The position numbers and the translations under genes are program-made. From Shigella phage Sf24, in sequence record MF327008: 64,000 nt of DNA; one strand, written 5' to 3'. Positions 13,240 to 23,780 of this stretch are shown here, piece after piece; position 1 is the stretch's first letter, and each line of letters begins with the position of its first letter. The notes under the pieces are model-generated. The model made no database searches. It had not been told where the DNA came from and worked only from the letters and a program-made list of their open reading frames with translations.

Positions 13240-13269
13240 ACTATAACACAACACGAGGGACTTGTAAAC
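13240..13269 (-). promoter_or_regulatory. early promoter (GTTTAC -35, TATAGT -10)
   Basis: Minus strand GTTTAC-N14-GTG-T-TATAGT; part of a 53 bp repeat also found at 28499-28551. Confidence 0.65.
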
Positions 13270-15326
13270 TACATTTTGAACTTTTTAGACATTCCGTTGA
13301 TGTTAACCAAAGAAGCTAAGATTTGAGAAACTTCGTTTTCCTCTTCTTTTGATTCTTCTACAAGGAATTGATTAAATCCAGCCATTGGACGAACTTCACC
13401 AGTTTCCATCAAATGATCGCCATCATATACTGATTCTTCTAATTGCTCAGAAGGAGGAACGATTGTGCCTTCGATTAGATACTTATTATAAGCAGTTTCT
13501 TTCATCATGTACGTGCTCACTTTATTAATCTTCAGTAAAATTCCACGTGGTAGAATAACTTCAGCTTCTGATGGAAATCCTGATAAATGACCTGGAACGA
13601 TAACTTTGATTCGCTCAGCCCCTTTAATTACCATACCTACGCTAGTTTCAGCGTCTTCATTCGCATAAGCAGAGTGACTACCCATATGCATTAAATCTTC
13701 AGCATCAACTGAACCTTCTCCTTCGCCAGAAAATACTGCGCCGGAATCATCTAGAGCCATATAGTTTTTACCATGCTCACCGAAGATATTTGGTTTAAGC
13801 GATGTGGATACGAAGTTCTTGAAATAGAACATTTTATTTTCAATATTATGACGTAAAGTTTTAAAAGTAACTTCTTGTCCACGATAAAGCGTAGTTCCTG
13901 GAGGAAGAACTGAACCTTTAGCGAATGCAGAATCCATTGTCTCGATGTGTTTAATAGCTCGTTCCATGTATTCTTCACGGGTAGAATCTGGTTTACCCAA
14001 GAGGAACGAGTTCATTTCAACATATGAATCTGCACAATAATCTTCAATTACATCAGACTCAGCCTGAGTTAATCCTTTTGGAGTTACTTCGGTGCTTGCG
14101 TATTCATATGCCTGAGCAGCAGATTCATTAATCAATTTATAAATGCTATTCATGACAAATTGAATAATAGCTGTCTTTTCATCTGACGTAGCTTTAGAAC
14201 CTTTAACTAAATCATTGATAATTTTCTTAATAACATCAAAGCTATTAGAAATATTAATGTCAGCGAGATCGCTCAAAATTTTATCGGTTTTATAATCAAA
14301 AAATTCTTTATTCTTTAAATATTCTTGAGAACCTTGATATGTTATATCGCTCTGCAGTCTGATAGACGGATCACGTAAACGCGCATGGGCCAATGCAATA
14401 TGATTTCGGAAGCTTTCTAGTTCATAATCGTTAGATTTAAAACGAGAAGCACTTCTCATACCACCGATAGCTCCTTTGCTGAAGTTGGAACCAATCTGAA
14501 TAACACCAGAGTTCATTGGTCCTTCTGCTTTATATACAGGAACTTTAGATTCAAACTCTTGATATTTCTTGGCAGCGAAGCTATCACCCTGAAGTGAAGC
14601 ATCAACAGTAGAATATTGAGCTTGTGCTGCTAATCGACGACTAATTTTAGTTTTCTGAATAACAGCTTGATCCGTACGCTTATCATTTTCTAAAGCAATA
14701 GAAGCAGCAACTGCGACAGCTTTAGGAACAGCATTACCTGTTTTAACGTCTACATAAACATCACCAACCTTTGATTCAACTTTTGTGAATAACTCAGCTG
14801 AAATAGGAGGTACACCTGGAATGTCTTCTAAATTGGCATTTTTACGGTAAACCATAATATATGCGTACTTTTTATCATAGTCCCAGATTTCCTTTAAAAG
14901 AACATATCGGCCTGCTCCTTTAGTACGTACTAAACGGTCAGCAATAACTTGCATTTGACGAGCAGCGCCATTTGTTTTACTCTTTAGTACGCGGAATAAG
15001 CATGCATCAATTTTATACTGTTTCATTGTTTGAAGAGCAGTATCAAAAACAGCATTAATGGCGCCAATTGGATTTCCACCCAAGTTTTTAAGTTTAACTA
15101 ATGATAGTTTCTCATTGACACCTATCATTACGATATGCATCATTTTGTCGCCTGGCTTAACGTTTTTATTCGTATCACCGCCAGAGGTGTATGTACAAAA
15201 TCTAAATCCAGGAAGCACGCTTTCTTCACCGGCTTGAATAGCAAAAATTTGTGGTATTTTATGCTTAGGATTTAAGTTAACAACCGGCGCCGAAGCGCCG
15301 TCAAATAATTCTGTAATAAGTTCCAT
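13269..15326 (-). CDS. Alt-like ADP-ribosyltransferase paralog, 685 aa
   Basis: Shares N-terminus (MELITELFD...LNPK.KIPQIF) and domain order with the adjacent alt; R-S-E triad elements YRG, FVSTSL and SEAEVILPRG. Confidence 0.85.
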   Translation of the reverse strand: MELITELFDGASAPVVNLNPKHKIPQIFAIQAGEESVLPGFRFCTYTSGGDTNKNVKPGDKMMHIVMIGVNEKLSLVKLKNLGGNPIGAINAVFDTALQTMKQYKIDACLFRVLKSKTNGAARQMQVIADRLVRTKGAGRYVLLKEIWDYDKKYAYIMVYRKNANLEDIPGVPPISAELFTKVESKVGDVYVDVKTGNAVPKAVAVAASIALENDKRTDQAVIQKTKISRRLAAQAQYSTVDASLQGDSFAAKKYQEFESKVPVYKAEGPMNSGVIQIGSNFSKGAIGGMRSASRFKSNDYELESFRNHIALAHARLRDPSIRLQSDITYQGSQEYLKNKEFFDYKTDKILSDLADINISNSFDVIKKIINDLVKGSKATSDEKTAIIQFVMNSIYKLINESAAQAYEYASTEVTPKGLTQAESDVIEDYCADSYVEMNSFLLGKPDSTREEYMERAIKHIETMDSAFAKGSVLPPGTTLYRGQEVTFKTLRHNIENKMFYFKNFVSTSLKPNIFGEHGKNYMALDDSGAVFSGEGEGSVDAEDLMHMGSHSAYANEDAETSVGMVIKGAERIKVIVPGHLSGFPSEAEVILPRGILLKINKVSTYMMKETAYNKYLIEGTIVPPSEQLEESVYDGDHLMETGEVRPMAGFNQFLVEESKEEENEVSQILASLVNINGMSKKFKM

Positions 15327-15329
15327 GAT

Positions 15330-17426
15330 TTATCCTTGAACGAACTTGTAAGGCATGTTTGTAATATCTATGCAAGATGCAATAATTCCAAGAGATGATT
15401 CTACTTTTTGTTTAACATTTGATGAAACAAATGATGCAAAGTCAACTCTGTCTTCTATTTCAATATCACCTGTCATTGCAACTACTTCGCCGGTTTCCAT
15501 TAAATGGTCTCCATCATAGATTACCGATTCGGTGAGCTCTTCCGTGGTCATAACTTCAGCTTGAATGAGTTTTGTATTATTAGACGTGGTTCCGTCATTA
15601 TTAGAAGCATCAGTTATTTTATTAACTTTGACCATCAATCCGCGCGGTAGAATAACTTCAGCTTCTGTTGCTATTCCGAGACTTCCTGGATATACAACAT
15701 TAACTTTATGAGCTCCATCAATTGCCCATCCTATTTGAACTTTAACGTATTCAGGATTTTCTTTATACGCTCTTATTTCGTTTGGATTAATAGTTATTCC
15801 TTCTTCATTTTTATCAACTGTCAATTCATTACGAGCTTCTGGTTCTAAAAGACCAATACCAGCATGCGTAATTCCAAAACGTCCAAAAATGATAGGAGTT
15901 AAAGAAGTAGATACAAAATTTCTGAAATAGAATACTTTATTTTTAACTAATGCTTCGTATATAGGAGCAGTCATGCTTTGAGCACGATAAACTGTGATGC
16001 CTTCCGGTATGCGGTCACCATTTTCAAAAGCTGAATCTAAGTTATTTATAGCAGATTCAATTTCTTTTTCACTCATTACATCATATCGTTCTGGATTGTA
16101 ACGACCTAAAAGAAGATTATTGATGTCAGTATATCCTGAACCGCAATATTCTCTAATGCCACGCTTTTGTGATGGAGTATATTTAGAACCATCGCGGGCA
16201 ATAGTAATATCAATCATTGGACCAGCACCAATTCCAGAAAAACTGTAAATCATTCGTTTGAGGAATTTAGTTTTTGCTGCGTTCCAGGAATTTTTAGTTA
16301 TTTCTTCCCAGACTTCATCTGATTGTCCTTTACGATTTTTATTATGATTAGCAAGCCATTTATCTTTATAATCTTCAAAGAATTGATTTACAGCTGCTGC
16401 GTATTTCTCTAAACATTTTATTGAAGTAGTTGGTTCATTTTTAATTGCATTAAAAATTACTTCTTTAATTTTTTCTGAAACTTCACCGACTTGACTCATT
16501 GGAAAGAATTTATAATCATAGTGAAGTTCATCTGCCGTTCCTTCGGCAATAATTTTTGCTGCCTTAGTTTTAGAAGCTAATGAATTAATTCCAAGCTTCA
16601 TTTCTTCTGCTTCGGGAATTAAAGGTGCAGTAGCTGGTTTATTAAAATTAGCTGCTGTAGATTCATACTTCTGGAATAATTCACTTTCAAATCTAGAAGA
16701 TTCCAATGACTGACTTTGTGCAATTGCTCTACGGGAAATTTTAACTTTAACGATTACAGCTTGGTCAGAACGTTTATCGTTTTCTTGTGCAATAGATGCT
16801 GCAATTGCCTCATTTTTAGTTACTTGAGCTCCAGTATCTTTATTGATATAAACATCGCCAACTTTCGATTCAACTTTAGTAAAGAGCTCGGTACTAATTT
16901 CCGGAACTCCTGGAATGTCTTCTAGCGATACATTTTTGCGATGTATAAGAATATATGCATACTTTTTATCATAATCCCAGAGTTCCTTAAGAAGGACGTA
17001 TCTGCCACCTGAACGACTACGGATAAGTCTATCAGCAATAACTTGAATTTGTCGAGCTTGACCAGCGGTTTTAGACTTAAGAATACGAAGCATACAAGCA
17101 TCAATTTTATACTGACGCATTGTTTGCATTGCAACAGTAAAAACTGAATTGATATAATTAATTGGGCTTGGACCAAGACCTTTTAATTTAGCAATTGAAC
17201 CTTTAGCAGTTAATGTAAAAGGAACAATATGCATCATTTTATCGCCCATTTTTAAATCGCGATTAGTATCACCTCCAGATGTATAGGTACACAAACGAAA
17301 GCCTGGTTGTTCAATTGCGTCATCAACATGAACTGAAAAAATTTGCGGTATTTTCTTCTTTGGATTTAAGTTTGTAATCGGAAGAGTAGTATCTTCGTCA
17401 AATAATTCTGTAATGAGTTCCATCAT
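15330..17426 (-). CDS. alt: Alt ADP-ribosyltransferase (injected internal head protein)
   Basis: 698 aa; closest to remembered T4 Alt; ART elements VYRAQS, FVSTSL, TEAEVILPRG; late TATAAATA promoter upstream. Confidence 0.88.
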   Translation of the reverse strand: MMELITELFDEDTTLPITNLNPKKKIPQIFSVHVDDAIEQPGFRLCTYTSGGDTNRDLKMGDKMMHIVPFTLTAKGSIAKLKGLGPSPINYINSVFTVAMQTMRQYKIDACMLRILKSKTAGQARQIQVIADRLIRSRSGGRYVLLKELWDYDKKYAYILIHRKNVSLEDIPGVPEISTELFTKVESKVGDVYINKDTGAQVTKNEAIAASIAQENDKRSDQAVIVKVKISRRAIAQSQSLESSRFESELFQKYESTAANFNKPATAPLIPEAEEMKLGINSLASKTKAAKIIAEGTADELHYDYKFFPMSQVGEVSEKIKEVIFNAIKNEPTTSIKCLEKYAAAVNQFFEDYKDKWLANHNKNRKGQSDEVWEEITKNSWNAAKTKFLKRMIYSFSGIGAGPMIDITIARDGSKYTPSQKRGIREYCGSGYTDINNLLLGRYNPERYDVMSEKEIESAINNLDSAFENGDRIPEGITVYRAQSMTAPIYEALVKNKVFYFRNFVSTSLTPIIFGRFGITHAGIGLLEPEARNELTVDKNEEGITINPNEIRAYKENPEYVKVQIGWAIDGAHKVNVVYPGSLGIATEAEVILPRGLMVKVNKITDASNNDGTTSNNTKLIQAEVMTTEELTESVIYDGDHLMETGEVVAMTGDIEIEDRVDFASFVSSNVKQKVESSLGIIASCIDITNMPYKFVQG

Positions 17427-17447
17427 ATCCTCTCTAGTGTTTATTCT

Positions 17448-17455
17448 ATTTATAA
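17448..17455 (-). promoter_or_regulatory. late promoter TATAAATA for alt
   Basis: Reverse complement of tatttata, 22 bp upstream of the alt ATG. Confidence 0.6.
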
Positions 17456-17475
17456 AATTAAAGGCCCGAAGGCCT
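17451..17475 (-). terminator. hairpin terminator between the ligase operon and alt
   Basis: AGGCC-CGAA-GGCCU hairpin with A/T-rich tract on the minus strand. Confidence 0.45.
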
Positions 17476-17664
17476 TTAATAATCTATTGGTAAGAGAGTA
17501 CGATATATTTCAAACTTTGGACCTTTTTCATAGGCATCAAATGTTTCTGTGAATTTATTATAAGCATATGCATCTATAAATTCAATCATAATTTGTGATA
17601 CAGAAGTAGAAACATCTCCACCTTCTTTTTGAGCCACGACAATTGTTTCTAAGTAAGCTTTCAT
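17476..17664 (-). CDS. hypothetical protein, 62 aa
   Basis: ORF directly downstream of and overlapping the DNA ligase stop; hairpin at its 3' end. Confidence 0.5.
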   Translation of the reverse strand: MKAYLETIVVAQKEGGDVSTSVSQIMIEFIDAYAYNKFTETFDAYEKGPKFEIYRTLLPIDY

Positions 17665-19124
17665 AGACCAGTTACCTCATGAAAATCACCAAATACATCC
17701 TCGAATGTATTAGCTTTAGTTTTATCTTCACGTAAACGAATCGCAATCGGAAGAAATAATTTAACGTAATCGGTGCGGCCATCAGATTTTAACCAACCAT
17801 TGCATTCGCACTCTAGAATTTTTCCAATATAATAATTTTGGTTTTCCATAATGCGAGTACGGTCAAGTTCATGCGATTTTACACCGGCTTTATCTTTTAA
17901 GCCTGAACCAGCATTTACTTTAATTTTTCCACACTCTGATTCAAGAATAAATCCACCCGCTTTAGTAGGGTCTTTACGGTGAGGATAAATTCCTACAATT
18001 TTTAAATCAACATCAATTACTTCTTTAAATTTATAAAGATTTTTTGAACGAGCATTTTCCCATAATCCATCGATATTTTTGAGAATAATACCTTCAAGAC
18101 CTTGGTCAATATACTTTTTATAAATTACCTTAGCTTCATCTATGTTATTTACTACCTGGTTTTCAATTAAAATTACTTTATCATATCCTGATGTCATTTG
18201 TTCTAGTTTAGAAAAACGTACATCATATTTTAAACGAAACGCCGGAAGACCGTATATTTCTACCAACGGGACATAATCCCAAACCTGAAACTTCATGCAT
18301 TGAGCTTCTTTTTCAGAAATGGTTCCTTTTAAGGATTTATTGGCGATTCCATTAGAAGTAGTACGAGATTCCGCTACTTCGGCGAATTCTTTAGCTTTAC
18401 TAATTTCAGGATAAGCATCAAAAAGAAAATCTAGGCCTTCTGGTTCCTTTTTAACTTGCTCATGGTATACCAATTCGCCATCAATTAACACACCTTCTGG
18501 ATGAATCTGGCGGGCTTCAGCAGTCATTTTGATTAACTCTTCCTTAAGAAGATCTAATCCTAGATATTCATTACCAGCTCGTGATAAAAGACGAACATCA
18601 TCTAATTCATCGCCTCGGACTTCAGCAAAACACCGGGCTCCATCTGCTTTTAACTGCGCAAAGGCTGGAAACTTGATATTCTTACTAATGCCCTTTTCAT
18701 CATAAGAACTTGCCAGCATTTGAGGTTGTTCAGGAATTAAACCTGGCCAAACTTTGTTTGCAATAGATACTGAAGCACCGCATTCAAGGTCTCGCATCAT
18801 CACTCGACGCAAAACTTCAACATCATCCTTTTTACCATCAGTGATATATCCAGTTAATTCCTCAATTGCAGCATTTCCAGTCAATTTCCGAGTAGCTAAC
18901 GTGAATTCAATGAAATCAAGCATATCGGTAATGGTCAGCATTCCAAAACTCTGGGTAGCAATACCAGGTTTAGGCCATTTCTTGATATAATACTGTAACC
19001 CACGAGAATAAGTCAGACGATATACTCGTTTAAGCAATTCATTATCTTTATTCTTTTCAAGAATTGCTTGCTTCTGCTTAGTTGATCCAATAGATGCTAT
19101 TTCATTCAGAATTTTAAGAATCAT
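17661..19124 (-). CDS. 30: ATP-dependent DNA ligase gp30
   Basis: 487 aa, T4 ligase length; ligase-type lysine motif QLKADGARC. Confidence 0.92.
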   Translation of the reverse strand: MILKILNEIASIGSTKQKQAILEKNKDNELLKRVYRLTYSRGLQYYIKKWPKPGIATQSFGMLTITDMLDFIEFTLATRKLTGNAAIEELTGYITDGKKDDVEVLRRVMMRDLECGASVSIANKVWPGLIPEQPQMLASSYDEKGISKNIKFPAFAQLKADGARCFAEVRGDELDDVRLLSRAGNEYLGLDLLKEELIKMTAEARQIHPEGVLIDGELVYHEQVKKEPEGLDFLFDAYPEISKAKEFAEVAESRTTSNGIANKSLKGTISEKEAQCMKFQVWDYVPLVEIYGLPAFRLKYDVRFSKLEQMTSGYDKVILIENQVVNNIDEAKVIYKKYIDQGLEGIILKNIDGLWENARSKNLYKFKEVIDVDLKIVGIYPHRKDPTKAGGFILESECGKIKVNAGSGLKDKAGVKSHELDRTRIMENQNYYIGKILECECNGWLKSDGRTDYVKLFLPIAIRLREDKTKANTFEDVFGDFHEVTGL

Positions 19125-19390
19125 TGTTCATCCTTCAGAGTTTGATTTACAGCTCTATTATAAATCAATTCATCATTAAGCTCAGTTAAAGACCTATGAT
19201 ATGTAGTTCTAACTTTATTTCCTTGCATCCAGTGCTTGATATAAATGAAACCTTGCTCTACACATTTTTTAAAAATTCGTTCGTCTTTTTGAGCTCGGAA
19301 TTCTGGATTGCATCTAAAGAATTGATTTACGTGACCGTAATCACGCGTAGTATTACCTTCATTTTCATAAATAGTGTGAACGACAAACAT
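19121..19390 (-). CDS. hypothetical protein, 89 aa (30.1 position)
   Basis: ORF overlapping ligase start; gene order. Confidence 0.6.
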   Translation of the reverse strand: MFVVHTIYENEGNTTRDYGHVNQFFRCNPEFRAQKDERIFKKCVEQGFIYIKHWMQGNKVRTTYHRSLTELNDELIYNRAVNQTLKDEQ

Positions 19391-20229
19391 TAGAATGCTC
19401 CTTGGAAAATATTATCACCACAAGTAGGTCTATTATACAAATACTCTATGCCACCAGGTTTAATATAGTTCCATGTCTGAAACGGATGTGTCTGATATGG
19501 ATGATATAGATGATTATAAGGATTAAACCCAGGAGTTCTCCAGGTAGTGTTCCAACGAAAAGAATCATTTTTAATCATCTTTTCAATTACATCTTTTATA
19601 GCTTTTTCACTATCAAAACTTTCTTTATTTTCCTTCGGTGAAAAAAGTTTATTTTCTACATCATTCCATATATAAACTCGCTGCGCAGTTTTTGGAATAT
19701 TGTCACGCTCTCCTCGAGCCATCCAATAAACAGGAACATTTAATATTTCACTCGCATGATCGCAATGATGCGCGAGATCGTCAATATAACAAATTACGTT
19801 ATATTTCTCTTTTGCCTTTTTGAACAACTCTTCTTTTGAAGAATCATGACCACACATCATTACTTCCGAGAAGGCGCCAGGAAAAAGAGCATTCAAATTA
19901 AATTGACGATTCAACAGAGCGTCAATAGAATCACCCAATGCTGTAACAGCTACAAAATTATAATCTTCTTTTAGTTTGTTAATTACACACAGGGCATCTT
20001 TATATGGAGACAAGTAACGAATAAAATCTGATCGATTATATTTTTCAATTAACTTGACACCAAGTTCTTCATCACAATTAAAGAGTTTACCTGGAGAAAT
20101 AAATTTCTCATCTTGGATCATTTTTAAAATATGTTCTAACGGAAGATTATATTTCTGAGCAAAATAAGGAAGACCTGATTGCCAGCTTAAACAAACTCCA
20201 TCAATATCAGTTAAAATAGTAGGCTTCAT
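19390..20229 (-). CDS. HAD-superfamily hydrolase-like protein, 279 aa (30.2 position)
   Basis: N-terminal DxDG-type motif LTDIDGV typical of HAD phosphatases. Confidence 0.65.
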   Translation of the reverse strand: MKPTILTDIDGVCLSWQSGLPYFAQKYNLPLEHILKMIQDEKFISPGKLFNCDEELGVKLIEKYNRSDFIRYLSPYKDALCVINKLKEDYNFVAVTALGDSIDALLNRQFNLNALFPGAFSEVMMCGHDSSKEELFKKAKEKYNVICYIDDLAHHCDHASEILNVPVYWMARGERDNIPKTAQRVYIWNDVENKLFSPKENKESFDSEKAIKDVIEKMIKNDSFRWNTTWRTPGFNPYNHLYHPYQTHPFQTWNYIKPGGIEYLYNRPTCGDNIFQGAF

Positions 20230-20690
20230 AGAGAGTCTCTTAATAGGTTTAACACATCAATAAATTCAGCTTCGGTTAATATTGTATCATCTTTTGTTAG
20301 ACCACTAGCCATGCTGTGCTTCAAAACTTTTCCTTTCGAGGCTTGTAATGCATCGCGAAAGCCCCTGTTTTGGAACGCTGCTTCAAAATATGCATTTGTG
20401 TATAATTCTTTCCACGCTGGGGAGTATCTTGAAAACGGAACTCCAAGCCAAAAGAGGGTCCCACGGTCCTGAGCTCTAGCATAAGACCTTCCAGCTTGTT
20501 GGGCGGCAAGCCCGGATAACCCAAATATACGTCTTTGCTGTTCAACATTTTTCACCTTACATCCTTGGAGGAATCCTTCGAGACCTCCAAATTGGATACC
20601 ATCCATAACAAAAGGCCATTGGGCGAAATTACTTAATGCGCATGATGGCCATTTAAAATTGCTTCTAATCTCTAACTCAGACATTTTCAA
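20226..20690 (-). CDS. NADAR / YbiA-like (DUF1768) domain protein, 154 aa (30.3 position)
   Basis: Motifs SNFAQWPFVMDG and E-G-F-L-Q-G-C-K resemble the YbiA/NADAR signature as remembered; needs HMM confirmation. Confidence 0.55.
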   Translation of the reverse strand: MKMSELEIRSNFKWPSCALSNFAQWPFVMDGIQFGGLEGFLQGCKVKNVEQQRRIFGLSGLAAQQAGRSYARAQDRGTLFWLGVPFSRYSPAWKELYTNAYFEAAFQNRGFRDALQASKGKVLKHSMASGLTKDDTILTEAEFIDVLNLLRDSL

Positions 20691-20883
20691 TACTTATAAT
20701 TTCAACATCAGCCCAATGACCATAGCAAGGAAGACGAAATTCAACTGGCCAGTTAGGGTCCTTTTCTAATATAATAGACTGAACTTGTGGCTCTTCATAT
20801 TCATCGGTATACGGACCTTTATACGTTACTTTATATGTGACCTTAATATACTGAATTCCAAAAATCTTATTAATTATATTCAT
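20677..20883 (-). CDS. hypothetical protein, 68 aa
   Basis: ORF overlapping its neighbours in the 30.x operon. Confidence 0.5.
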   Translation of the reverse strand: MNIINKIFGIQYIKVTYKVTYKGPYTDEYEEPQVQSIILEKDPNWPVEFRLPCYGHWADVEIISIENV

Positions 20884-21077
20884 ACTAATTCCTTTAATCC
20901 GTAAATAGGAGATAATTCATCGCCCATACGAAGGTCTTCATTTCCATCTACCCAGGAAACAATATAAGCCTCTTTTATTTGAATACCACTCCATTTAAAT
21001 GGAGGTAGAACCTTAGAAATTAATCCAGGTATACCAACTCCCTTTAATTCAACAGTTTGACCTAAAAAGAATTTCAT
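20880..21077 (-). CDS. hypothetical protein, 65 aa
   Basis: ORF coupled to neighbours. Confidence 0.5.
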   Translation of the reverse strand: MKFFLGQTVELKGVGIPGLISKVLPPFKWSGIQIKEAYIVSWVDGNEDLRMGDELSPIYGLKELV

Positions 21078-21364
21078 TAGAACCTCATCTGAAAACCGTG
21101 CGATTTAACATTACCTCCGCCAATATCAGAAATGTTAATTTCGCGCGCAATTGAAGGGTCAATGTCAATTTCACGATTGAGTTTAGTGATAGCTAAAGTA
21201 TCGCGCCCATTTACAGTACGGAACTCTAAAGGACATACTACATTAACGTAGTTTTTAATCGATTCACTGGTAGGTTGCAAATGAACAGGAAGGTCTTTAG
21301 GCGCCTTTGAGAAAACCACTTCACAGAAATTTTTGCGGGTATCAAAATAAGTAGTCATAAACAT
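21077..21364 (-). CDS. hypothetical protein, 95 aa
   Basis: ORF coupled to neighbours. Confidence 0.55.
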   Translation of the reverse strand: MFMTTYFDTRKNFCEVVFSKAPKDLPVHLQPTSESIKNYVNVVCPLEFRTVNGRDTLAITKLNREIDIDPSIAREINISDIGGGNVKSHGFQMRF

Positions 21365-21405
21365 AGTATTTTCCTCAGTAAGGGGCCGAAGCCCCTCATT
21401 TTATT

Positions 21406-21771
21406 TTAAATATCAAATTCGTTAAGAACTACATCAAAGATTGCTTCAAGATGCTCAGGTTTAGCTCTGTTACTCAGAATATGACGAATCCAAGTTTTAA
21501 CCAGAAGCTTGCGATTAACGCCATTCCAGCAAGGATGAGTCCCTAAATCGCGTTGACGAAAATCATCATCCAAAGCGATTTTGAAGTTGGAACCTTCCAT
21601 TGTGATTGAAACCGTGATGCCATTTTCAAATCGCATATAAACGTAGTTAGGAGTCATATACTGTTCAATTTCGCATACTGATCCATTTTGATGTTTCCAA
21701 AGGCAAATAGTATCAATAGAACCTGCAATACCATTAGAAACATATTTACGTTCAAAGTTGATGTAGTTCAT
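21406..21771 (-). CDS. hypothetical protein, 121 aa
   Basis: ORF preceded by a promoter-like element embedded in a hairpin. Confidence 0.55.
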   Translation of the reverse strand: MNYINFERKYVSNGIAGSIDTICLWKHQNGSVCEIEQYMTPNYVYMRFENGITVSITMEGSNFKIALDDDFRQRDLGTHPCWNGVNRKLLVKTWIRHILSNRAKPEHLEAIFDVVLNEFDI

Positions 21772-21807
21772 TTTTATTCTCCGAGATGTTTAATTGCGGT
21801 ACAGGTA

Positions 21808-21837
21808 TATAATATCATATCCTGTACCAAAGTAAAC
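21808..21837 (-). promoter_or_regulatory. candidate early promoter embedded in a hairpin
   Basis: GTTTAC followed 17-18 bp later by TATTAT; flanked by inverted repeat ggtacagg / cctgtacc. Confidence 0.45.
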
Positions 21838-21839
21838 AA

Positions 21840-22172
21840 TTATTTTACTACTTTCCAGTGCTGCATGTCAAGTTTACCAACTTTTTTCATCTTCTCAATT
21901 AAGCGTTCTGCGCGTTGGCGAGCTGTAACATAATGCCATTCACCTAATTCATTTTGTTCAATTTTTCCAACGATTACTGTGTTCAATTCATAAATCCAAC
22001 CAGTAAAGAAATTATGAACTTGAATTGTAAAGGTGAAATCTGTTCCCATACCTTCTGTTGTTTCTACTTCAATAATATCACCTTCAACTGCCATTAAGAA
22101 CCACATAGTTTCATCATATTTACCGTTGAAGCATTTAGTTTTAACTGTAGCGTTCAGATTAATCGTTTTCAT
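21840..22172 (-). CDS. hypothetical protein, 110 aa
   Basis: ORF with an early-promoter motif at 22200-22229. Confidence 0.55.
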   Translation of the reverse strand: MKTINLNATVKTKCFNGKYDETMWFLMAVEGDIIEVETTEGMGTDFTFTIQVHNFFTGWIYELNTVIVGKIEQNELGEWHYVTARQRAERLIEKMKKVGKLDMQHWKVVK

Positions 22173-22199
22173 TTTATTCTCCTTTGTTTGTGTAAGATA

Positions 22200-22229
22200 A
22201 TACTATCACAAAGGAACCATACTGTAAAC
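22200..22229 (-). promoter_or_regulatory. early promoter
   Basis: Minus strand GTTTAC-N14-GTG-A-TAGTAT upstream of the 21840-22172 gene. Confidence 0.6.
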
Positions 22230-22248
22230 AACTTTGTGCAATCTTTGG

Positions 22249-22277
22249 AAAATAAAAAAGGACTCCCGAAGGAGTCC
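22249..22277 (-). terminator. rho-independent terminator
   Basis: GGACUCC-CGAA-GGAGUCC hairpin followed on the minus strand by UUUUUUAUUUU. Confidence 0.8.
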
Positions 22278-22282
22278 TCAAC

Positions 22283-22501
22283 TTATGCTTTCTGCTTACC
22301 AAAACGAGAAGCATCATCTCGAAGAACCGCACGTGCTCGGCGCATGATCTTCTCAACAGTTTGATTGATACGAGAGTTCGACCCACGCTTGTAACCAGCG
22401 CGTTTAGAATCACCAACTTTCTTTTCAACTGCTTTCTTTGCTTTAGCTTGTTTTGCCATTATAAATTCTCTTTTAAATGAAAATGCAGGACTTATTGGCA
22501 T
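22283..22501 (-). CDS. small Lys/Arg-rich protein; start may be the internal Met at 22459 (58 aa)
   Basis: ORF ending at a strong terminator hairpin (22260-22277); very basic composition. Confidence 0.5.
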   Translation of the reverse strand: MPISPAFSFKREFIMAKQAKAKKAVEKKVGDSKRAGYKRGSNSRINQTVEKIMRRARAVLRDDASRFGKQKA

Positions 22502-22704
22502 TGCCTGCGCAAGCCCTCAAGGGGAACATAGGTTTTTGAATATTTAACGACCAGGATAACCATAAACCCGTCATCATTCACATTCAAGAGGTACACCGTA
22601 AAACTGCCGGGGTCTTAAAACTATAATGATTCGCAAATCATTAATCAGACAGTTCGACGGCTCCTCGATTTTAGCTCACACTAAGGCAGTGAATCTCCAA
22701 TAAA

Positions 22705-22953
22705 TTACTTCAGTGTTACCACAAAGTGACGAACTGCTTTTCGTGCAGCAGAAGCCAGAGGCTTAGCATATTTAAGTTCATCTTTTTCCTGAAGCTCAGC
22801 AGCTAATGCAGTTTGAGCAGGATTCAGATGTTTGAAATAACGCAGGATTTCAAGAGCTTCGGCTTCAACATCAATAGATGCGCCATAGTTTTCGTGACCA
22901 TTATTCCATGCGTTTCGTTGCAGTTCAAGAGCGTGTTGTAATTGTTTAATCAT
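22705..22953 (-). CDS. rIII: rIII lysis-inhibition accessory protein
   Basis: 82 aa, T4 rIII length; sequence MIKQLQHALELQRNAWNNGHENYGASIDVEAEALEILRYF...; position before gene 31. Confidence 0.85.
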   Translation of the reverse strand: MIKQLQHALELQRNAWNNGHENYGASIDVEAEALEILRYFKHLNPAQTALAAELQEKDELKYAKPLASAARKAVRHFVVTLK

Positions 22954-23079
22954 TTAAAAATTCTCGTTAGAGATTAAAACTCGGTAGTCACGTTCTTCTG
23001 AATTTCATCTTCTTTCGACAGATCTCTCAGTTGTAGACTACCACATAGAATTGAAACTCAATTCATATTATTATTTATA

Positions 23080-23415
23080 TCACTTATAAAGACACGGAAT
23101 AGCTTTATAGTGACAGGTAACGAATTTTTGCTTAATTTCTTTTGGCTGCTTAAGACCCAGAGCTACAAAAGGATGCGGAACGTTTCGAATTTGACCAACT
23201 GGAAGAGAAGTCAAATCACCAACTTCACAGAAACCTTCAGGAACATCAGGACCAACAGAGTGAATTACACACAGTTCAGGAACTTCACCTTGAACACGTT
23301 TACCGATAATAAGTCCTGATTCTGTAACTTCTTCATCACCGGCTTGTGCAGGTTCAGAAACTAAAATAACATATTCACCGACAGCACGAATTGGTAGCTG
23401 TTGTACTTCAGACAT
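23080..23415 (-). CDS. 31: gp31 co-chaperonin (GroES analogue)
   Basis: 111 aa; sequence [30 protein letters not shown]... matches remembered T4 gp31. Confidence 0.92.
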
Positions 23416-23445
23416 CGTTTTTCCTTTTTGTTAACAGATGAATTA

Positions 23446-23470
23446 ATAATAACAAATAATTCTTAAAGCA
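23446..23470 (-). promoter_or_regulatory. candidate MotA-dependent middle promoter for gene 31
   Basis: Minus strand ATGCTTTA, 12 bp spacer, TATTAT. Confidence 0.45.
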
Positions 23471-23471
23471 T

Positions 23472-23780
23472 TTATTTACCAATAAATTGGAGTAAATGCT
23501 CAACTTTCATACCATTAACGGAAATCAATTTGTCAATAGAAAAACCTCGCCATGCACCAAGCTCAACATCAAATACTGGAATCATGTCAGTAGATTCTTT
23601 CCGAGTAGATTCAGTCAATTTACCAGTTTGCATGGTTGGCATAAAGTCTGCATCACGAGTACCTTTCATAGTACGAATAGTACCATCAGACTTTTCAAAA
23701 ACTACGTTTGAAATACCCATGGACAATTTAGTTTTCAAAATTTCACGAATTGCTACTTTTTGTTCAGTCGTCAATTTCAT
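23472..23780 (-). CDS. hypothetical protein, 102 aa (31.1 position)
   Basis: ORF; gene order. Confidence 0.55.
   Translation of the reverse strand: MKLTTEQKVAIREILKTKLSMGISNVVFEKSDGTIRTMKGTRDADFMPTMQTGKLTESTRKESTDMIPVFDVELGAWRGFSIDKLISVNGMKVEHLLQFIGK

Follow-up and report, generated by a model that had tools for sequence, protein, structure and literature searches.

The closest described relative of the protein treated here is gp30.3 of phage T4. Johannesman et al. (Nat Commun 2025, PMC11825919) have characterised it under the new name AdfN (anti-DarT factor NADAR). [quoted passage not shown] The purified protein strips ADP-ribose from DarT1-modified DNA and is ineffective against the thymidine-specific DarTG2, while each of the substitutions E36A and K43A impairs it and truncation of the C-terminus weakens it (PMC11825919). 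In vitro T4 gp30.3 hydrolyses guanosine-ADPr and not thymidine-ADPr (Toxins 2024, PMC11125620); the methods of that paper list the T4 NADAR construct as 'residues 1-208', as against the 152 aa of the T4 annotation. A T4 transposon screen adds that insertions in 30.3/adfN are completely lost on a DarTG1 host and that the gene is not required on E. coli K-12 hosts that lack DarTG1 (bioRxiv 10.1101/2025.11.20.689424).

T4 AdfN does not rescue uninfected E. coli from the toxicity of DarT1 and rescues non-T-even phages only partly, and its full effect appears only during T-even infection, even with the unmodified DNA of T4-GT7 (PMC11825919, PMC11125620). The protein has been reported to need an unidentified T-even factor (PMC11825919), and its full effect in T-even infection only points to a T-even co-factor or context. 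[quoted passage not shown]

The window analysed here comprises 64,000 nucleotides of Shigella phage Sf24 (MF327008), and the ORF of interest is found on its minus strand at 20226..20690, with 154 aa when read from the TTG given in the ORF list. In a preliminary description this ORF had been proposed to encode a NADAR/YbiA-like protein situated near a HAD hydrolase, a ligase and Alt genes. The ORF is a conserved gene, matched by Pfam PF08010 and PHROG 652 and with homologues found by tblastn, and both the ligase (17661..19124) and the Alt genes (13269..17426) are located nearby as described. When comparing the gene order with that of T4 (NC_000866), the same succession was found, namely Alt (15330..17426), alt.1, ligase gp30 (17661..19124), 30.1 (DUF3045), 30.2, 30.3 and 30.4, continuing past 30.4 with 30.5, 30.6, 30.7, 30.8 and then rIII and gp31, which identifies the ORF as T4 gene 30.3. 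A 2.5-kb piece around the ORF shows 99.7% identity to Shigella phage Sf25 and 97-98% identity to hundreds of Tequatrovirus genomes.

In Sf24 two Alt-like ADP-ribosyltransferase genes, both of full length, stand in tandem, at 13269..15326 and 15330..17426 (both on the minus strand), encoding 685 and 698 aa respectively. The two paralogues are 41% identical (E=2e-163). T4 has one alt gene together with the short remnants alt.-1 and alt.-2, annotated as an old partial duplication, so that an intact second copy is kept in Sf24 where T4 has relics.

T4 annotates a gp30.3 of 152 aa beginning with MSELEIR, which corresponds here to the ATG at 20684..20682. In view of both this annotation and the alignment of the family the TTG at 20690 was rejected as start, being probably two codons (six bases) too early, and the true start is most likely this ATG. 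The 154-aa product first described is thus a real ORF whose start was probably set two codons upstream of the proper one, and the coding sequence of adfN, a NADAR-superfamily DNA ADP-ribosylglycohydrolase by orthology, extends over 20226..20684 on the minus strand (152 aa plus stop; residue numbers below refer to the ATG). The gene lies within a tightly packed array of genes on the same strand; at its start it overlaps the 30.4 stop within ATGTCTGA (20677..20684, minus strand) and its stop overlaps the start of 30.2 in an ATGA (20226..20229, minus strand), and both overlaps, read from the sequence and the ORF ends, may provide translational coupling. In another frame inside adfN a 75-aa ORF is open at 20321..20548 (minus strand), exactly in the position of T4 30.3', which is annotated in T4 as translated out of frame from within gene 30.3.

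Scans of the region 17400..23600 gave 25 promoter-like sites where 22.3 were expected and three terminator-like sites where 3.6 were expected, in neither case above chance, and no claim about transcription units is therefore made beyond the tight packing of the genes. The individual sites include a near-consensus σ70-like promoter at 21842..21871 (minus strand), in the 3' end of 30.8 and upstream of 30.7, with TTGACA, an 18-nt spacer and TAAAAT (11 of 12 matches), and a GC-rich hairpin with a T-run at 22258..22279 (minus strand), just downstream of a 30.9-like ORF. Both may be of chance origin, the regional counts not exceeding those of shuffled sequence.

A search against Pfam placed the product in PF08010 (Phage_30_3) with E=3.1e-69 and 231.5 bits, as against a cut-off of 36, covering positions 1-138 of the 138 in the profile, and PHROG 652 was matched with E=2.4e-51. 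The latter profile has 296 positions, only 126-272 of which are covered by gp30.3, and PHROG 652 thus takes in longer proteins with an N-terminal part that is absent from gp30.3. The product is 100% identical to its copy in Sf25 and 97% identical (148 of 152 residues) to T4 gp30.3, with four conservative substitutions (K11R, F104I, R106K and M125I). With tblastn, homologues were found in 1509 of 50,697 phage records, mostly Straboviridae of Escherichia, Klebsiella, Aeromonas, Acinetobacter and Vibrio and a few outside this family, for example in Rhizobium RL38J1 (Pootjesviridae) and Ralstonia RSP15 (Ackermannviridae). In most database records the gene is labelled hypothetical. Several database clusters of close relatives contain proteins of reduced length (83-126 aa) or proteins fused with domains of neighbouring genes (PF11097, PF06919, PF06019), an indication that adfN alleles with a frameshift or truncation, as in RB69, are no rarity in T4-like phages; phages carrying a truncated adfN might be sensitive to DarTG1.

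To address the relation to the NADAR proteins, an alignment of 47 gp30.3 homologues, reaching down to 35% identity, was used together with the sequence of the window protein itself. When run alone against Pfam, the window protein gave no match to PF08719 (NADAR) at E<=1, the matches being PF08010 and, spuriously, DUF724 (E=0.24); a single-sequence phmmer search of PDB returned only a chance match (3rjz, E=0.76), and neither gp30.3 nor gp30.2 matched any model of NCBIfam or PADLOC. The link to NADAR consequently needs profiles or structure. PF08719 is matched by seven of the 47 family members when searched singly (best E=1.5e-7), and when the family HMM was run against PDB the sole meaningful match was E. 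coli YbiA (2b3w, E=0.0018), extending across SNFA...DG...E.F.Q..KF. Alignment of the family profile with YbiA of MG1655 in hhalign gave a probability of 94.6% and E=6.6e-8, so that the comparison with PF08719 proposed in the preliminary description is positive by way of the family, the window protein alone being without a match.

An AlphaFold2 model, built on the family alignment without the T4 row, showed a mean pLDDT of 93.8 and a pTM of 0.89, and when run through Foldseek against PDB its top three matches were 2b3w (YbiA), 8bau (a Phytophthora NADAR with ADP-ribose) and 8bat (a DarG1-type NADAR of Geobacter lovleyi), all of them NADAR structures, while the rest had E>2. The confident model, the matches to NADAR structures only and the profile evidence together make the NADAR fold unambiguous, and the structural comparison with YbiA that had been suggested thereby comes out in favour of the original guess.

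The motifs on which that guess was founded are both present, SNFAQWPFVMDG spanning residues 18-29 and EGFLQGCK (E.F.Q..K) residues 36-43. The latter begins with the catalytic Glu36 of the pattern E-x-F-x-Q-x-x-K (codon GAA, 20577..20579, minus strand), which is invariant in the 47 members and aligns with the Glu of the YbiA motif, and ends with the catalytic Lys43 (codon AAG, 20556..20558, minus strand), likewise invariant in the family and aligned with the YbiA motif. With its fold, the profile link and these residues, gp30.3 belongs to the NADAR superfamily. Directly after the last strand of the model (residues 120-122) stands His123 (codon CAC, 20316..20318, minus strand), which is invariant and marks the phage gp30.3 branch; His123, the match to PF08010, the orthology with T4 and the full length of the product place the protein in the gp30.3/AdfN-T4 branch. 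The last 15 codons (residues 138-152, 20229..20273, minus strand) encode a C-terminal helix, 138-151 in the model, which is intact; residues 126-152 are identical to T4 and no frameshift interrupts the 152 aa. In RB69 a frameshift removes the last 15 residues and the allele is defective (PMC11825919), from which it follows that the integrity of this helix matters.

The ORF is thus very probably the adfN gene of a Tequatrovirus, encoding an anti-DarTG1 ADP-ribosylglycohydrolase of NADAR fold. An eraser acting against DarT-type toxins of the host, as had been guessed, is experimentally established for the 97%-identical T4 AdfN (PMC11825919, PMC11125620 and bioRxiv 10.1101/2025.11.20.689424), and by analogy with that protein the enzyme activity, the guanine specificity and the counter-defence phenotype would hold for Sf24 as well, where the allele is expected to behave like T4 AdfN. 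In a host carrying DarTG1 the DarT1 toxin would ADP-ribosylate guanines in the phage DNA and block its replication; AdfN, made from the co-directional and tightly packed gene block, would then use Glu36, Lys43 and the phage-specific His123 to cleave the N-glycosidic bond between ADP-ribose and guanine. Removal of ADP-ribose from guanine would restore replicable phage DNA, and the stand-alone 152-aa enzyme would in effect serve as an orphan antitoxin carried by the phage. The preliminary description, from motifs alone, had reached a function that is already published. Since both the enzyme with its substrate and its part in counter-defence appeared in print in 2024-2025, no new biology is presented here; what changes is that a label of 'hypothetical protein' in the window is replaced by a named function with experimental backing. 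Sf24 is predicted to resist DarTG1 like T4 and T2 and unlike RB69, which bears on the prediction of host range and on the design of phage therapy.

The downstream neighbour, gene 30.2 (19390..20229, minus strand; 279 aa), encodes a HAD-superfamily hydrolase-like protein with a core of residues 1-200 followed by a disordered C-terminal tail, and is 97% identical to T4 gp30.2. No Pfam match was obtained, and a single-sequence phmmer search of PDB gave only a chance match (1kps, E=1.4), while the family profile matched a 5'(3')-deoxyribonucleotidase (2jao) weakly, with E=0.045. The alignment of the family showed D8 and D10 (the DxD of DIDGV) and K132 to be invariant and D150 and D151 nearly so. 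In the AlphaFold2 model residues 1-200 are confident, with a core pLDDT above 90, and Foldseek returned 108 matches in PDB at E<=1e-3; the 50 of these that were listed all belong to the HAD superfamily or are enzymes derived from such a protein by engineering, and 5'(3')-deoxyribonucleotidases are among them. The HAD-like neighbour with a DIDGV motif that had been pointed out is accordingly a real ORF with a Rossmann-like HAD fold, having the DxD, the Lys and the acidic motif IV. The C-terminal third of the protein (19390..19800, minus strand; residues ~200-279) falls below a pLDDT of 55 from about residue 225 and is rich in aromatic residues, Pro and Asn (WNTTWRTPGFNPYNHLYHPYQTHPFQTWNY), and as many homologues have only about 200-220 aa the tail is a variable appendage.

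The closeness of the two genes raises the alternative that AdfN and gp30.2 form a two-enzyme module, in which gp30.2 is the T-even factor needed or processes released ADP-ribose or a phosphorylated product. For a factor of the kind reported for AdfN-T4 (PMC11825919) the HAD-like gene next door is a candidate that would be cheap to test, and the fold of its product is, among the matches listed, closest to nucleotidases and phosphatases; if the proposal were true, gp30.2 could keep AdfN stable or bring it to its place of action, or else remove a product that is phosphorylated or derived from ADP-ribose. The ATGA shared by the two genes fits such a module, but start/stop overlaps are the rule along the whole T4 gene array and so carry no specific signal for this pair. 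The order 30.3-30.2-ligase is kept in distant Straboviridae (Acinetobacter phage Kimel, Citrobacter phage Maroon and Aeromonas phage phiWae14), and when records are grouped by the first word of the organism name the spread of the two genes is nearly identical, with 1509 records for gp30.3 and 1438 for gp30.2 in the phage database (77 and 77 in Aeromonas, 69 and 69 in Acinetobacter); such co-distribution would, however, be seen for any pair of genes that Straboviridae conserve. Against a module stand the homologues of gp30.3 in Vibrio Schizotequatrovirus, Rhizobium RL38J1 and Ralstonia RSP15, which have no 30.2 within 5 kb, and Vibrio phage R11Z, where 30.3 and 30.2 are ~12 kb apart. An obligatory partnership of gp30.2 with AdfN was downgraded on these grounds. 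The joint action of the HAD-like protein and the NADAR protein that the preliminary description had envisaged finds no support, as 30.3 occurs without a nearby 30.2 and adfN alone restores RB69 (PMC11825919), and the one gene that the text of the transposon screen gives as lost on DarTG1 is 30.3/adfN (bioRxiv 10.1101/2025.11.20.689424). We therefore consider the two-enzyme module very unlikely, and hold out just as slight a chance that gp30.2 is the T-even-specific factor for full AdfN-T4 activity; 30.3 and 30.2 would then make up a counter-defence module of two components. The pairing of 30.3 with 30.2 looks like inherited T4-type gene order.

It is likewise highly improbable that the main role of gp30.3 is another than countering DarT1, be it as a YbiA-like N-glycosidase of riboflavin intermediates, as an eraser balancing Alt, ModA and ModB or as an eraser of RNA ADP-ribosylation. 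In favour of such roles are the fold and motif that gp30.3 has in common with YbiA and the presence of two Alt ADP-ribosyltransferase genes at a distance of 3-7 kb. The known targets of Alt, ModA and ModB, however, are protein arginines and not guanine. Against such roles stand also the invariant His in place of the last-strand Glu of the YbiA family (PMC11125620), the all-or-none DarTG1 phenotype in T4 and T2 (PMC11825919) and the dispensability of adfN on E. coli K-12 without DarTG1 (bioRxiv 10.1101/2025.11.20.689424).

As a predicted anti-DarTG1 ADP-ribosylglycohydrolase, Sf24 gp30.3 compares most closely with its ortholog T4 AdfN, with which it shares the length of 152 aa, the slot between 30.4 and 30.2, the residues E36, K43 and H123 and the intact C-terminal helix; the Sf24 allele differs at the four substituted positions. 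With E. coli YbiA (2b3w) and PF08719 (DUF1768) the identity is only 19-21%, and the last-strand Glu that defines the YbiA family is an invariant His in gp30.3, which is therefore not a YbiA-family enzyme. YbiA, whose gene lies next to dinG, has a housekeeping function as N-glycosidase of riboflavin intermediates. When compared with DarG1 (e.g. the Geobacter lovleyi NADAR 8bat and the NADAR of E. coli C7), which it resembles in action although AdfN is used by the phage, gp30.3 lacks the N-terminal extension, its fold starting at residue 3, and has His123 in place of the catalytic last-strand Asp; nor does a DarT gene lie beside it, the neighbours being 30.4 and 30.2 and the PADLOC models giving no match. 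These three differences set it apart from a DarG1 antitoxin, and in uninfected cells T4 AdfN is no substitute for DarG1 (PMC11825919, PMC11125620). AdfN-Bas32 and AdfN-Bas60, from T5-like and Vequintavirinae phages, are likewise phage-borne NADAR proteins that counter DarTG1 but, according to their description, they belong to other NADAR clades, were independently acquired and work without the T-even context (PMC11825919).
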